In this document: positions 14,942-30,525 of the stretch, piece by piece
Numbering within the stretch: the first letter of the stretch is position 1
Layout of the letters: each line of letters begins with the position of its first letter
Source of the DNA: Candidatus Micrarchaeota archaeon
GTDB lineage: Archaea > Micrarchaeota > Micrarchaeia > Norongarragalinales > UBA97
NCBI GenBank assembly: GCA_038046065.1
Contig: JBBSWX010000030.1
Coordinates: 21,133 to 53,820 of the forward strand
Reading direction: 5' to 3'
DNA length: 32,688 nt
Position numbers and translations under genes: made by a program
The notes under the pieces: model-generated
What the model saw: the letters and a program-made list of their open reading frames with translations, nothing else
Database searches by the model: none
Told to the model about the DNA's origin: nothing

Positions 14942-16753
14942 ATGGACTGGACTGGCGTGAAGATAGGCATCGAGATACATCAGCGGCTCGAGTCGAAAAA
15001 GCTCTTCTGCAATTGTTATTACAACGATGCCGCGGCAGGCAGGGGCAAGGTGAGCGTGCTGTTGAGGCGGAGGCTGCGCGCAGTCACTGGCGAGATGGGC
15101 TCGACCGACCCTGCGGCGGCGTTCGAGGCGCGCAAGGCATTCGAAATGGAGTATTCTGTTGACGAGGCGAGCGCGTGCCTCGTCGAGACGGATGAGGAGC
15201 CGCCGCACGCGCTGAATGCAGAAGCATTGCAGACCACGTTCTCCGTTGCGCTCGCGTTGAAGGCCGCGCCCCTCGACGAGATTCACGTGATGCGCAAGAC
15301 GGTGGTGGACGGGTCGGCAGTAGGCGGTTTTCAACGCACTGCGCTCGTAGCGGTGGAAGGCAAGCTCGAGACGCCGCTGGGCACGGTAGGCATCCCTACC
15401 GTGTGCATTGAGGAGGAAAGCGCAGGCATAAACGGCAGGGAATGCGGCGTTTCGCGTTACGACCTCGACAGGCTGGGCGTGCCCCTCGTGGAAATTGCGA
15501 CCGACCCTTCGATAAAGAACGGCGAGCACGCCGCGCAAGTGGCAGGCGCGATTGGCAGGCTCTTGCGCGCCACCAACCGCGTCCAACGGGGGATAGGCAG
15601 CATCAGGCAAGATGTGAATGTTTCCATTGACGGGGGCGCGCGCGTCGAGATAAAAGGCGTGCAGGAACTCGCGGGAATGGCGAAGCTGGTTGAGAACGAG
15701 GTGCTGCGCCAGAGGAAACTGCTCGAAGTGATGCGGGCGCTTGACGGAAAGAAATTCTCGCGCGGCAAACCCGCGGACGTCTCGCGCGCACTCGCGGGCG
15801 CAGGCAGCTTCGTCGGCAAGTCAATTGCGCAAGGCAACTCCGCGCTCGCAGTAAGACTGCCGCACTTGAAGGGCGTGCTTGGAGCCGAGCTCTCGGCAAA
15901 CCACCGCGTGGGAACCGAACTCAGCGATTACGCGCGCGCCGCAGCCGGCGTGGCGGGAATAATGCACAGTGATGAAGGGCTTGCCAAGTGCGGGATAACG
16001 CCGGAAATGGCTGACGCGGTTGCCAAGGCAACTGGGTGCGATGAGGGCGACGCGTGGGCGGCGTGCGTCGCCGAACGCGGCGTTGCGGAAAAGGCGCTTG
16101 ACGCGGCGGTGGGACGGGGGGAAATGCTTTTCGAAGGCGTAGTGCCTAAAGAAACGCGGCGCGCCGACGGCGAATTGAGCCGCTTCATGCGCCCGCTGCC
16201 GGGCTCGGCGCGCATGTACCCCGAGACTGACGTGCCGCCAGTCAAGGTAACCAAACAACTGCTCGATTCTGCGGAAGCGATTGAAAAGCCGGACGACCGC
16301 GTCGCGCGCTATGCAAAGCTGGGTCTCGCGCACGAATTGGCCGAAGGCATTGCGCTAGACGCGGCCAACCCCGTTTTCGAAGGCGTCGTGGCGCGGGGTG
16401 CAGACGCGCGGCTTGCCGCAGTCACGCTGCTGCAAACAATAAAGGCACTCAAGCGCGAAGGCAAGAACGTCGAAAAGCTGACTCCAGACAGGGTGGCGGG
16501 CGCGCTGATGCTTCACGCGCAAGGCCGCGCAACGCGGCAGGCGGTCGGCGAGTTGTTGAAGGCAATGTGCGAGTCGGACGGCACTGCCGGCGAGTGCCTC
16601 GCGCGCAGCAAGCTCGAAAAATTCAGTGCAGCAGCCCTCAAGAAGATTGCTGCGGAAAAGGGTTTTGACGCCGCGGCCGTGATGCGCGAACACCGGCTCA
16701 ACATCGACGCGGCAGAGCTTGGAGAGTTGTGCCGCGGCAAAAAGAAGCCGTAA
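14942..16753 (+). CDS. gatE: Glu-tRNA(Gln) amidotransferase subunit E
   Basis: GIEIHQRL...KLFC, DEEPPH, MRKTVVDGS..GFQRT, LDRLGVPLVEIAT, RQDVNVSI, RPLPGSARMYPETD; adjacent to gatD. Confidence 0.95.
   Translation: MDWTGVKIGIEIHQRLESKKLFCNCYYNDAAAGRGKVSVLLRRRLRAVTGEMGSTDPAAAFEARKAFEMEYSVDEASACLVETDEEPPHALNAEALQTTFSVALALKAAPLDEIHVMRKTVVDGSAVGGFQRTALVAVEGKLETPLGTVGIPTVCIEEESAGINGRECGVSRYDLDRLGVPLVEIATDPSIKNGEHAAQVAGAIGRLLRATNRVQRGIGSIRQDVNVSIDGGARVEIKGVQELAGMAKLVENEVLRQRKLLEVMRALDGKKFSRGKPADVSRALAGAGSFVGKSIAQGNSALAVRLPHLKGVLGAELSANHRVGTELSDYARAAAGVAGIMHSDEGLAKCGITPEMADAVAKATGCDEGDAWAACVAERGVAEKALDAAVGRGEMLFEGVVPKETRRADGELSRFMRPLPGSARMYPETDVPPVKVTKQLLDSAEAIEKPDDRVARYAKLGLAHELAEGIALDAANPVFEGVVARGADARLAAVTLLQTIKALKREGKNVEKLTPDRVAGALMLHAQGRATRQAVGELLKAMCESDGTAGECLARSKLEKFSAAALKKIAAEKGFDAAAVMREHRLNIDAAELGELCRGKKKP
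16139..16150 (-). repeat. Dispersed copy of the TTTAGGCACTAC motif inside gatE
   Basis: Plus strand reads GTAGTGCCTAAA (encoding VVPK). Confidence 0.8.
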
Positions 16754-17008
16754 TGCGCCAGTCTTGGTGGCGGCATAACCCGGCCGGATTGCCGCGTCAA
16801 TAATCTATTCAACTGCGCTTAAGGATAGCTCTCAGTACAACGGAGATTGTCCTCAGCTAAGGCAAACTGGTTGGGAGCGCGCAATAACACGCCGCACGGA
16901 AGCTTGAAATACCGGGCGCCACTACAAGCTTACAAAACTAGGCAAGCGGATTGAGGCACACCCTCCCGCATCTAACAAGTAAGCTTCCGAGCTAGGGGAT
17001 ATTTGCAA

Positions 17009-18088
17009 ATGGAAATGGATTTTGACGTTGATGACGCCAAGAGCAAGGCTATGCGGATTCTTCCCGCATTGGTAGTGGTAGTTGTGCTCGCACTAGGCGT
17101 GCTTTACTACGTGGGCGCGCCCAAGCCCGGCAAGGTGAGCGTGACGGTTGAAGAGTTGGATTCGGGAAAGCCCTTGCCGAGCATTGAACTCGCGCTTTCA
17201 GACGCGCAAGGCAACCTGGTGGGCGAGAGCCAGATTACTGACGCGAACGGGCAGGCGGATTTCGCGAACGTGCCGTCAGCAACGCAACTGACGCTGGCGA
17301 CTGTGGATGTGCTGCCGGGTTACGGCGGGGCTAGGGTGGGGGTGAACCTCCAGTCGGGCGGTTCTGATAACGCCGTGCTCAAGCTTGGCCGCGATTTGGG
17401 GCTCGAGCTCTACTTTACGGAAGGGACGAGGGCGCGGCTGGCAACGGTGACTGAACACTGCACGCTGCCCTTGGGGTTGGTCGTAACAAACCGGGGGGAG
17501 AACGAGCAGGAAGCCCAGTTGGTGGTAGAGTCGAACACTGACAGTGTGCAAGTGGCAGTCGGCGAGCCTATAATCGTTCCGGCGAAGACGGCGGTTGAAG
17601 TTAACGCGACGTTGTCCGCGGGCGCAGGGCGAGAGGGGGAGGAGGCTGCGGAACAAAGTTTCGCGTTGAGGTTGCGCAAGACGCAAACGAAAGTGGAAAG
17701 CAATTTTTACTTGAAGCCACGGCCGGTGTTGCAAGCCAGCCCGTCGGAAATATCGGCGGGTGAAGAGCAGACGATGACGTTCAGGCTGCGCAACGACGGC
17801 AAGACGCCGGTAACGGGGCTTTCCCGCCGCGTGCAGGTTACTGATGTGGAGACTGCAGCAGGATGCGGGCAGGACGCCAGTGCGTGCATATTCATAGACT
17901 GGCCGAAAGACGCTTCGGGCGTCGAGACAACCGCCATTCCTGCAAGCCAAGAGTTAGTGATGCCGATGAAAATCACGCCCCCGCCGCAGGAAGGCAAATA
18001 TATAGGCACGCTGTTCATAAGCGCCGACTGCGTGGCAAGCCCGGGCGTGGCAGTGCCGTTCGTGCTGCAAGTGGCAGGGCCTGCCTAA
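17009..18088 (+). CDS. Membrane-anchored surface protein with carboxypeptidase-regulatory-like and Ig-like domains
   Basis: N-terminal TM helix, V.V....SGKPL...TDANGQA.F.NVP pattern, repeated V.N.G and LRNDG Ig-like motifs. Confidence 0.75.
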   Translation: MEMDFDVDDAKSKAMRILPALVVVVVLALGVLYYVGAPKPGKVSVTVEELDSGKPLPSIELALSDAQGNLVGESQITDANGQADFANVPSATQLTLATVDVLPGYGGARVGVNLQSGGSDNAVLKLGRDLGLELYFTEGTRARLATVTEHCTLPLGLVVTNRGENEQEAQLVVESNTDSVQVAVGEPIIVPAKTAVEVNATLSAGAGREGEEAAEQSFALRLRKTQTKVESNFYLKPRPVLQASPSEISAGEEQTMTFRLRNDGKTPVTGLSRRVQVTDVETAAGCGQDASACIFIDWPKDASGVETTAIPASQELVMPMKITPPPQEGKYIGTLFISADCVASPGVAVPFVLQVAGPA

Positions 18089-30229: not shown

Positions 30230-30509
30230 GACTGCTTATTCTTGTTCGGATTGCAGGTTTCGTTTCGAGGCTGCAAGCCCCGCGGCCTGCCCGCGTTGCG
30301 GCAGCGCTGGAATCGGCGAGTTCAAGAGTGGGTTTGGCGGGGCGAAAATCATTCGCGACGGCAAGGATGGGTGGCAAGACTTTCACTCCCAGCGGCAAGT
30401 GGCTTGCCCTAATTGCGGCAGCCGGGATTTAGAGCTTAACTACAAGCGCAAGGAACGCACCTGCCGCAAGTGCGGCGAAGTCTTGGCGTTGCCCCGGCGC
30501 TTCGCGTGA
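30228..30509 (+). CDS. Double zinc-ribbon protein
   Basis: Four CxxC pairs (CSDC, CPRC, CPNC, CRKC). Start set at ATG 30228. Confidence 0.75.
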   Translation: MTAYSCSDCRFRFEAASPAACPRCGSAGIGEFKSGFGGAKIIRDGKDGWQDFHSQRQVACPNCGSRDLELNYKRKERTCRKCGEVLALPRRFA

Positions 30510-30525
30510 GTTGTAGTGCCTAAAC
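30510..30525 (-). repeat. Dispersed copy GTTTAGGCACTACAAC at the junction of two convergent genes
   Basis: Plus strand reads GTTGTAGTGCCTAAAC; it supplies the TAG stop of the 30520-31239 gene. Confidence 0.85.

Follow-up and report, generated by a model that had tools for sequence, protein, structure and literature searches.

The 11-mer TTAGGCACTAC is the most enriched 11-mer of a 0.84-Mb DPANN archaeal genome, is concentrated around one small gene and co-occurs with the stand-alone form of that gene across an archaeal order. The word is likely bound by the small protein, which is probably a chromosome marker; the explanation as a whole, with TTAGGCACTAC as the binding site of the 24395-24700 protein and this protein as a sequence-specific chromosome-marking factor, has in our judgement an even chance of being right. 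The transposon-related domain of the protein was likely recruited for a chromosome role, and the hub of sites around the gene is possibly the replication terminus.

The word and its sites

The window (the whole stretch of 32,688 nucleotides that was analysed) contains the following features:

16139..16150, minus strand: gatE site, in frame as GTA GTG CCT AAA (VVPK)
19498..19509, plus strand: intergenic site between a divergent AAA/DUF4143 gene and a type II/IV secretion ATPase gene
24395..24700, minus strand: small stand-alone gene, 101 aa, calculated pI 12.0
24485..24568, plus strand: word array inside the small gene, four exact copies with a 24-nt period
24584..24700, minus strand: 39-residue domain, candidate word reader, predicted three beta-strands (2-9, 12-23, 26-38)
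24711..25118, minus strand: unnamed beta-sandwich-like gene, 10 nt upstream of the small gene
25377..25799, minus strand: winged-helix gene of the conserved neighbourhood
30513..30524, minus strand: site over the stop codon of ORF 30520-31284 (DUF7343), between convergent genes

A sequence-only reading of the window had reported three exact and distant copies of a 12-mer in both orientations, at 16139-16150 (-), 19498-19509 (+) and 30513-30524 (-). These were borne out beyond shuffle expectation: matches with up to two mismatches number 10 against a shuffle mean of 1.55, a count reached in 0 of 100 shuffles, and four more exact copies lie at 24485, 24509, 24533 and 24557 (+) in the array. The 16-nt identity described between the copies at 19497 and 30510 is present, and the 30513 copy does form a stop codon, since its TAG ends ORF 30520-31284 (-), the convergent partner of which stops at 30509. 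The genome-wide count proposed by the same reading revealed 14 copies of the 12-mer, where an order-5 Markov model expects 0.077. The word proper is the asymmetric, non-palindromic 11-mer, with 19 copies against 0.24 expected; the first base of the 12-mer is not part of the word, as many relatives have G at that place. The cores AGGCACTAC noted at 5235 (+) and 18347 (-) exist, but such short 9-mers are background, with 24 in the genome (8.25 expected), 19 of them inside the 11-mer. The whole stretch was found in one piece in a single sequencing run, maybe the source run, and a 78-nt piece of the array was found in contigs of a second study; no RNA data set was listed as holding it. In the literature, the word or its reverse complement appeared in five papers whose subjects, judged by titles and the beginnings of abstracts, are unrelated.

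The word is exact and selected at the level of DNA or codons. Variants with a single mismatch are hardly enriched, and in the genome G000 the exact word encodes 6 of the 10 VVP[KN] peptides (0.09 expected). Site density is raised 11.2-fold within 5 kb of the small gene and 6.1-fold at 5-12 kb, and is about 1-fold beyond; sites outside this hub of about +/-12 kb are compatible with a uniform spread over contigs (p 0.46, 0.78), and macrodomain-scale clustering outside the hub was unsupported. Thus, of the earlier suggestion that the site is genome-wide or macrodomain-specific, a hub of 10-25 kb with an even scatter stood, but a macrodomain of hundreds of kb did not. Hub sites lie at differing places from genome to genome, and 62 of 130 sites fall inside genes, in either orientation, with targets mostly not common between genomes. 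The site in gatE was kept in 0 of the 6 orthologues examined. No site adjoins smc in five genomes (the nearest is about 3 kb away, in G017), and the scpA contig of G000 has none.

The small gene and its domain

Among 68 genomes of the order, 9 carry 16-30 exact copies of the 11-mer and 59 carry 0-3. With short Fic-type stubs set aside, the stand-alone gene was found in 8 of the 9 motif-rich genomes and in 0 of 52 others (61 genomes searched, which are kin and not independent); the ninth motif-rich genome has a contig break at the expected gene position. G017, G021 and G025, which have no copies of the 12-mer, were picked by the gene and then yielded 30, 28 and 23 copies of the 11-mer. Word sites are located at or in the small gene in G000, G001, G002, G004, G006 and G025. 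Close relatives possess neither gene nor word, including G011 with its 1.3-Mb contig, indicating that the system is dispensable. The two expectations of the sequence-only reading on this point, that genomes without the gene would show no enrichment and that the word is a protein-binding site tied to the small gene, agree with these data: enrichment tracks the stand-alone gene across the order, and this co-occurrence supports the predicted binding.

The association extends to more distant lineages. In the best 150 distant homologues, word-encoded peptides occur outside the domain 15, 20 and 9 times against 0.2-0.4 in shuffles, and a motif-first scan found the domain at 30 of 119 metagenome tandem-pair loci, 28 of them within 600 nt (control: 1 match in 1.18 Mb). 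Viral contigs contained no inverted pairs, and none of the 12 tandem-pair loci in viruses had the domain. In a second archaeal class, all four genomes with 9-40 copies have a short-frame match; 9 of the 17 genomes with at least 3 sites have none, four genomes with the short gene show merely 3-5 sites each, and G333 has a 101-aa frame and 0 sites.

The small protein consists of a beta-sheet domain and a basic tail with four VVPK repeats, which are encoded by the array; the tail comprises 45-48% Lys+Arg in five homologues. Its gene overlaps the last 95 nt of pelota (23431-24489, opposite strand), the TAG stop of which is supplied by the first copy of the array. Homologues occupy the same gene neighbourhood in G001, G002, G004, G006, G017, G021 and G025, and the gene is syntenic across two families. 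Two neighbours were ruled out because they occur order-wide: the 24711..25118 gene as a specific partner (64/68 genomes) and the winged-helix gene 25377..25799 as a factor explaining the word (63/68). Rfam and ARAGORN gave no match in the window, and no long inverted repeats frame the small gene.

An AlphaFold2 model of the 39-residue domain (pLDDT 92.8) is all-beta, with no helix after the sheet. Homologues of the domain comprise 2472 cluster representatives at E<=0.001; a single-protein homologue search (2 proteins) and a genome contig scan (2 loci) were both too insensitive. Neither the small protein nor its domain matched a significant family in sequence searches of Pfam, PHROGs, NCBIfam and PDB. 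With Foldseek no match reached E<=0.001, and the best VIA-align Z was 4.7; such results are not informative at 39 residues. In the ESM Atlas the matches were unnamed clusters only, with DUF6788 at 0.76 as a lead. No publication on the domain or site was listed in a search of largely open-access papers. The domain tree, built on 40 columns, is mostly unresolved and thus uninformative on whether the stand-alone genes form one clade.

Fic, GlyRS and IS1634 proteins also begin with this domain. A profile that includes the window domain and Fic fusions (A1) matches the start of an IS1634 transposase (E 1.4e-8); in G033 the domain heads such a transposase, with the A1 match at C46:534-644 and NF033559 in the same 475-aa frame. 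GlyRS fusions are matched by a wider domain profile, and in one homologue the fusion partner is integrase-like. At Fic, GlyRS and stand-alone genes the TATA-like boxes lie between paired sites, fusion subfamilies have their own word variants at their own promoters, and the fusion-bearing genomes of the phylum hold 0-4 copies of the word. That the beta-sheet domain reads the word, as it seemingly does at the fusion-gene promoters, and that the small protein represses its own gene via the adjacent sites, we regard as very probable; protein or domain would prefer GTAGTGCCTAA over single-base variants.

Role of the hub and alternative explanations

Granted binding, we lean slightly towards a freed and tailed protein that coats or bridges its sites, in the hub and elsewhere, and acts as a landmark or roadblock and not as a promoter regulator. 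The domain would have been freed from its enzyme partner, gaining the Lys/Arg-rich tail; it would load densely on one conserved locus, the 10-25 kb hub, and sparsely elsewhere, at about one site per 60-70 kb, coating or bridging both, and the bound protein would be a landmark or roadblock for segregation or for condensin (Smc-ScpA) traffic. The structural reading is favoured over a regulatory one because 62 of the 130 sites are genic and no more than 20 have a start within 100 nt. Tandem-pair loci also speak for it, 20 of 131 being located upstream of scpA, in low-GC archaea. The 20 sites near starts nevertheless suit an ordinary transcription regulator with a gained regulon, a possible though doubtful alternative, in which promoter sites would repress, sites in genes and at gene ends would be roadblocks and the hub would represent auxiliary operators for looping to the promoter of the small gene itself. 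The general role of the domain looks autoregulatory, to judge from the site pairs at TATA-like boxes, and some few sites are conserved upstream of particular genes, as in a regulon; sites recur upstream of a small RHH-like gene (G000, G004, G021) and in the scpA promoter region. However, targets mostly differ between genomes, coding sequence contains half of the sites, in both orientations, the word is all-or-none rather than graded, and the hub sites of G017 and G021 are all found to one side of the gene, where they spread over the conserved neighbourhood.

Whether the hub marks a terminus or an origin was approached by GC skew and gene orientation. The skew switches at the hub in three of six genomes (G000 p 0.0002, G002 p 0.0002, G017 p 0.03) and not significantly in G001 (p 0.08), G021 (p 0.17) and G004 (p 0.6); the switch in G000 is carried by the left side only, and gene-free G036 has one of opposite sign. 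Nine cdc6 loci failed to anchor the sign of the skew, majority-strand tests disagreed, and anchoring by gene-orientation bias was inconsistent. Genes mostly point toward the hub in five of six genomes (55-70%), so that a terminus fits better than an origin. No dif-like repeat was found by an 11-6-11 filter over eight hubs, and the positions of cdc6, xerA, ftsZ, smc and ParA showed no consistent adjacency to the hub in five genomes. It is improbable, though conceivable, that the hub is instead a centromere-like (parS-like) or origin-linked (ucm-like) cluster and the protein an adaptor that serves a partition ATPase or the replication machinery. The unanchored skew leaves room for this, the centred distribution resembles parS clusters, a MinD/ParA-family gene sits beside a three-site array in G001, 11 kb from the small gene, and at the unrelated metagenome locus L270 a small gene with a site pair is divergent from cdc6. 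Against it, the window and the G002, G017 and G021 hubs have no ParA-family gene (none in four of five hubs), and the best-scoring cdc6 does not share a contig with the hub in G001, G002, G017 or G021, while in G011 the distance is about 490 kb; no site cluster occurs at this gene in G001, G017 and G021, and G002 has one genic site 3 kb from it.

The sequence-only reading had also offered a mobile-element footprint and an uptake-type sequence, both of which fared poorly, and had argued against a polar signal from the mixed orientation. That a mobile element, of the IS1634 type or another, left the sites as its footprints or ends and the small gene as a transposase remnant is very unlikely and largely refuted: the domain is itself IS1634-related, heading the transposase in G033 and being fused to the integrase-like domain elsewhere, but the flanks of the sites differ, sites stand in frame in intact housekeeping genes via rare codon choices, a search of 11 motif-rich genomes found an IS1634 transposase in just 2 and none in the other 9, and the small gene is syntenic in both families. 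Moreover, the 101-aa gene has no DDE domain, and NF033559 was not found in G000. A DNA-uptake sequence or a polar signal of the KOPS, Chi or Ter type is scarcely credible. Such a signal would account for a non-palindromic, exact word that coding DNA tolerates, the window contains a type IV pilus-type ATPase operon, and orientation is slightly biased: 13 of 18 hand-tallied sites near the hub point inward (one-sided p 0.048, a weak bias), and in clear-skew windows the C-rich strand carries the word 25 times and the G-rich strand 12 times, a tally in which arrays and overlapping windows enter repeatedly. Uptake sequences (DUS/USS), however, number hundreds of copies per Mb, or hundreds to thousands in a genome, and the word only about 20 per Mb (16-40 per genome), no single orientation switch runs along the 452-kb contig of G021 (G021:C9), and the link to the gene accounts for the word without uptake.

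The marker reading, if taken further, might mean that the DNA-reading domain, derived from a transposase, was domesticated more than once in DPANN archaea into a minimal system for organising the chromosome, a protein of 50-100 residues with an exact 11-bp site that marks the terminus and positions or stops Smc-ScpA; we consider this extension rather unlikely. If true, archaea would have a first site-specific terminus system of the matS/MatP kind, and in another lineage scpA would be controlled by the same word. To our knowledge, few site-specific factors are known for archaeal chromosome segregation and termination, and the analysis names a candidate protein and its exact site for uncultured small archaea. 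It also outlines how a mobile self-regulation module might have become a chromosomal mark of genome-wide extent, in two archaeal classes, and domain subfamilies with different 11-bp words would constitute a compact natural DNA-recognition code. Replication forks of Sulfolobus are reported to end by stochastic collision (PMC3020120).

Comparison with known systems

The matS site of enterobacteria is a 13-bp palindrome whose copies are confined to an 800-kb macrodomain, and its reader MatP is a dimer with a fold unlike that of the beta-sheet domain described here. The two systems are alike in a few dozen exact sites, both genic and intergenic, a dedicated small (here candidate) binder, a possible association with the terminus and a functional link to SMC-type complexes, which here is proposed; they differ in that the word is asymmetric, has 11 letters and shows a 10-25 kb hub and a genome-wide scatter, and the candidate reader is an unrelated 39-residue beta-sheet domain with no MatP-family match in Pfam or NCBIfam. 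The predicted all-beta domain, not ParB, RHH or HTH, and the lack of a ParA-type ATPase in the window also set it apart from ParABS and SegAB. Arm-type integrase and AP2-like domains read asymmetric sites of about 11 bp, and those of tyrosine integrases and AP2-like proteins resemble our domain in a predicted three-stranded sheet of similar size, whereas no helix follows the sheet here and the Foldseek rows 3jtz (E 1.2) and 3rmp (E 2.5) are non-significant. The N-terminal domain of IS1634 transposases and of archaeal Fic/Doc and GlyRS fusions is the same 39-residue domain by sequence homology, with the same word or close variants paired at its own promoters; in contrast, the domain here stands alone, with a basic tail and 16-30 copies of the word.

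In Thermococcus kodakarensis, TrmBL2 halts Smc with the highest frequency near dif and, in addition, at tens of further loci (PMC11840125). Such a roadblock to Smc-ScpAB by a DNA-bound archaeal protein is the role proposed here, although TrmBL2 belongs to another protein family and binds AT-rich motifs, while our system has one exact word and Smc stalling is only proposed. The Sulfolobales protein UBP, of 111 aa, is essential; it is bound at 329 loci and acts together with MCM at origins (PMC12141716). The likeness, in part proposed for the system here, includes a small, basic, nucleoid-associated archaeal protein, an 11-bp element and one key locus with many further sites; the ucm sequence is another one, and the system here is patchy and away from the main cdc6. 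UBP and the small protein show no sequence match, and the Foldseek row 9eff is non-significant (E 1.8, TM 0.40), the 39-residue model being too small for a verdict on the fold. The small protein may best be read as a domesticated chromosome marker that works like MatP/matS or UBP/ucm while apparently belonging to neither family.

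An enriched word and its distribution

The 12-mer is present exactly at all three distant positions of the window where the sequence-only reading had placed it, and four further exact copies form an array. The features of the window are as follows.

24485-24568: array of four exact 12-mers, 24-nt period
24395-24700, minus strand: small stand-alone gene (101 aa)
8765-9706, plus strand: ORF whose C-terminus weakly matches sigma-70 region 4, missed by the gene caller

The source genome (G000; 839,931 bases, 86 contigs, 71% complete) has archaeal gene content (gatD/gatE, pelota, Elp3, CCA enzyme), and the nearest clusters of the protein neighbouring the small gene carry the label Microcaldota, which we take to be Micrarchaeota of the DPANN group. 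A genome-wide count, as the sequence-only reading had proposed, gave 14 copies of the 12-mer. The word proper, the 11-mer TTAGGCACTAC, occurs 19 times against 0.24 expected and is the top-ranked 11-mer by enrichment, with its single-base variants at about background. Two other words, AGCTTGACCAAA and CGAAGAAAAGGT (14 copies each), are also enriched genome-wide in G000.

For relatives the 12-mer alone is misleading, because in many of them a G precedes the word; the 11-mer count cleanly separates all 68 genomes of the order into nine rich genomes and 59 with 0-3 copies. In a 301-genome sample of the phylum, more than 4 copies were found only in G000, G001 and G002. Several distant genomes have a few copies arranged as inverted pairs 25-28 nt apart, and two of five such loci directly precede Fic genes that carry a short extension at the N-terminus.

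Copies of the 11-mer, and sites (copies of the word) at the stand-alone gene, in the nine rich genomes
G000: 19; sites within the 3' part of the gene
G001: 24; site 7-8 nt ahead of the start codon
G002: 28; site 7-8 nt ahead of the start codon
G004: 16; sites within the 3' part of the gene
G006: 23; sites upstream; gene interrupted by contig end
G017: 30; no site within 400 nt of the gene
G021: 28; no site within 400 nt of the gene
G025: 23; site 7-8 nt ahead of the start codon
G033: 19; no gene detected, the syntenic contig stopping at 11,819, about 400 nt short of the position expected from G017

A candidate protein paired with the word

The Fic extension shares homology with residues 1-39 of the array-containing ORF (24395-24700, minus strand), a domain modelled by AlphaFold2 as three beta-strands (pLDDT 92.8). 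A pI of 10.8-12.0 marks the small proteins as basic, and Lys+Arg make up 45-48% of the tail in five homologues. Family libraries gave no named match for the protein or its domain, and fold searches with the domain returned nothing significant. The same domain starts an IS1634 transposase in G033 and forms the N-terminus of glycyl-tRNA synthetases, where a site pair lies just before the start codon (NCBIfam was run on L228 and L238).

L228:683-2338: domain-GlyRS fusion
L238, L243, L247, L285, L286: further such loci

By homology, the small protein is a member of this IS1634/Fic/GlyRS N-terminal domain family.

A profile of eight Fic-extension or small-gene domains (A1) matched in 37 of 61 genomes searched, mostly in 300-residue fusions. 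Thirty loci were inspected individually and the remaining matches classed by frame length; short matches in G022, G050, G037 and G008 were left out as Fic-type stubs or fragments (the G022 stub, 43 residues, clusters with Fic domains in a genome with one site). The resulting gene/word contingency table, 8/1/0/52, overstates significance because the genomes are kin. G017, G021 and G025, from a different family, were picked via the gene, ahead of any count of the 11-mer in them. The expectation that genomes lacking the small gene would lack the enrichment was borne out in the same two families by G003, G005, G011 and G029; G011, 90% complete, has the conserved neighbourhood without the gene. G003 (72% complete), in which no stand-alone gene was found, has no exact site; it contains four copies of a variant, TTAGGCACTTC, two of them within a hub marker gene (L045:2143, 2281; L046:1471), and altered specificity is possible.

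Fic subfamilies with differing domain sequences have differing paired words at their own promoters. In the 150 best-scoring of 2472 cluster representatives, word-encoded peptides counted outside the domain numbered 15 (VVP[KN]), 20 (LGTT) and 9 ([FVLI]RHY), spread over 32 proteins; shuffled sequences averaged 0.2-0.4. A motif-first metagenome scan for tandem pairs gave at least 119 loci, 39 of those listed having short flanks; the domain occurs in 30 of those listed, 28 within 600 nt and mostly just after the pair, and 1.18 Mb of control DNA gave one match. In 196 genomes of a second archaeal class, reached via the locus L123, the top site counts were 40, 40, 11, 9 and 8. Among the 60 searched with A1, a short frame was present in 8 of 17 genomes with at least three sites (one frame being 162 aa), in all four with at least nine, and in one of the 43 that lacked sites. 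It is very probable that the candidate protein binds the word, and we infer that it would repress its own gene.

Sites, hub and chromosome

A simple gene caller placed 62 of 130 sites from the retrieved DNA of the nine genomes inside genes and 20 no more than 100 nt from a start, with 33 close to a gene end alone; the small gene escaped the caller, so the four array copies of G000 were scored intergenic. The exact word encodes 6 of 10 VVP[KN] peptides in G000 (0.09 expected from codon usage), the same codon-level excess recurs in parts of G001 and G021, and in gene-free G011 the figure is 0 of 8. Genic sites are under DNA-level selection. Individual sites turn over: the gatE site, whose conservation the sequence-only reading had left to be checked, is retained in none of six orthologues, and G025 has two different sites within gatE.

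At three loci, a small ribbon-helix-helix-like gene without a Pfam match has one to three sites directly upstream.

L021:5043-5426 (G004)
L024 near 12090 (G000:C86)
G021:C9:358320-358675

A TTGTATACAA palindrome stands beside these sites in G000 and G004, and the gene is a candidate conserved target. At L038:10150-10365 (G002:C23), five copies spaced 45-66 nt in the 5' part of an ORF encode repeated VRHY peptides.

Pooling seven genomes, leaving out sites closer than 250 nt to the gene and merging clusters, we counted 13 loci within 5 kb of the gene (1.16 expected) and 9 at 5-12 kb (1.48 expected), then 2, 7 and 8 in successive bins (3.0, 5.7 and 5.9 expected); 15 of 16 G004 sites were listed, and orthologous sites are common to G017 and G021. 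Beyond this hub, the sites are distributed over the contigs in a way that uniform spread could explain. A conserved gene neighbourhood makes up the hub (tfe-like, PRC-barrel, enolase, phosphoglycerate mutase, dcd, winged helix; some of these names were read from the sequences by eye), and its marker genes occur order-wide. A conserved 53-residue gene near it (G001:C17:118612-118773, with orthologues in G002, G004 and G006) presumably resembles a SWIB domain, judged by eye. G000, G001, G002, G017 and G021 each have 4-6 ftsZ-family matches above the curated cut-off. PRC-barrel proteins have a role in archaeal cell division, other roles being possible (10.1101/2023.03.28.534520).

In G000, G001, G002 and G017, the sign of fourfold-site GC skew flips near the gene, plus giving way to minus. 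A baseline-free test gave p 0.0002 in G000 (the left side carrying the signal), 0.0002 in G002, 0.03 in G017, 0.08 in G001, 0.17 in G021 and 0.6 in G004; in genomes that lack the gene the result was 0.01 in G028, nothing in G011 or G032 and a strong opposite switch in G036 (G036:C1 near 61 kb, sharply minus to plus, the conserved neighbourhood being about 9 kb away). Genes mostly point toward the hub in five of six genomes with the small gene, majority-strand correlations have mixed signs, and nine cdc6 loci had no consistent opposite skew signal. The leading strand is usually G-rich, and under this rule a terminus is the likelier, though not established, reading of the hub. A possible origin-side case is L270:1352-3230, where a stand-alone gene of 55 residues, accompanied by two sites, runs divergently from orc1/cdc6. 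KOPS invert precisely at dif (PMC2958812), whereas the orientation of the word is at most weakly polar.

Of the 131 tandem-pair loci listed, 20, some of them near-duplicates, come from low-GC archaea and have the pair upstream of scpA: in 18 it stands immediately ahead of a TATA-like box, in two it is about 600 nt away. Pfam ScpA was confirmed in all eight genes tested.

L232:1436-1490 and L237:3001-3043: scpA-upstream tandem pairs
L255, L258, L260, L280, L283, L291, L292 and 11 more: likewise

These pairs fit a role near SMC biology; their position is that of a promoter, and plain regulation could account for them. No site lies on the scpA-bearing contig of G000. The factor acting at the scpA pairs may be the GlyRS-fused domain found in contigs of similar GC.

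Comparison with known systems

The data establish the word, its enrichment, the selection on it, the hub and the co-occurrence with the gene. If the candidate protein binds its word, a structural role on the chromosome would be somewhat probable. The mode of working would be similar to that of MatP/matS, UBP/ucm (PMC12141716) or the TrmBL2 roadblock (PMC11840125); tests of membership in each failed or could not be passed. No description of the stand-alone form, together with its genome-wide sites and hub, turned up in the literature searched. The phenomenon is real and new to that literature, and its kind would be a known one, that of a site-specific nucleoid protein with its own sites.
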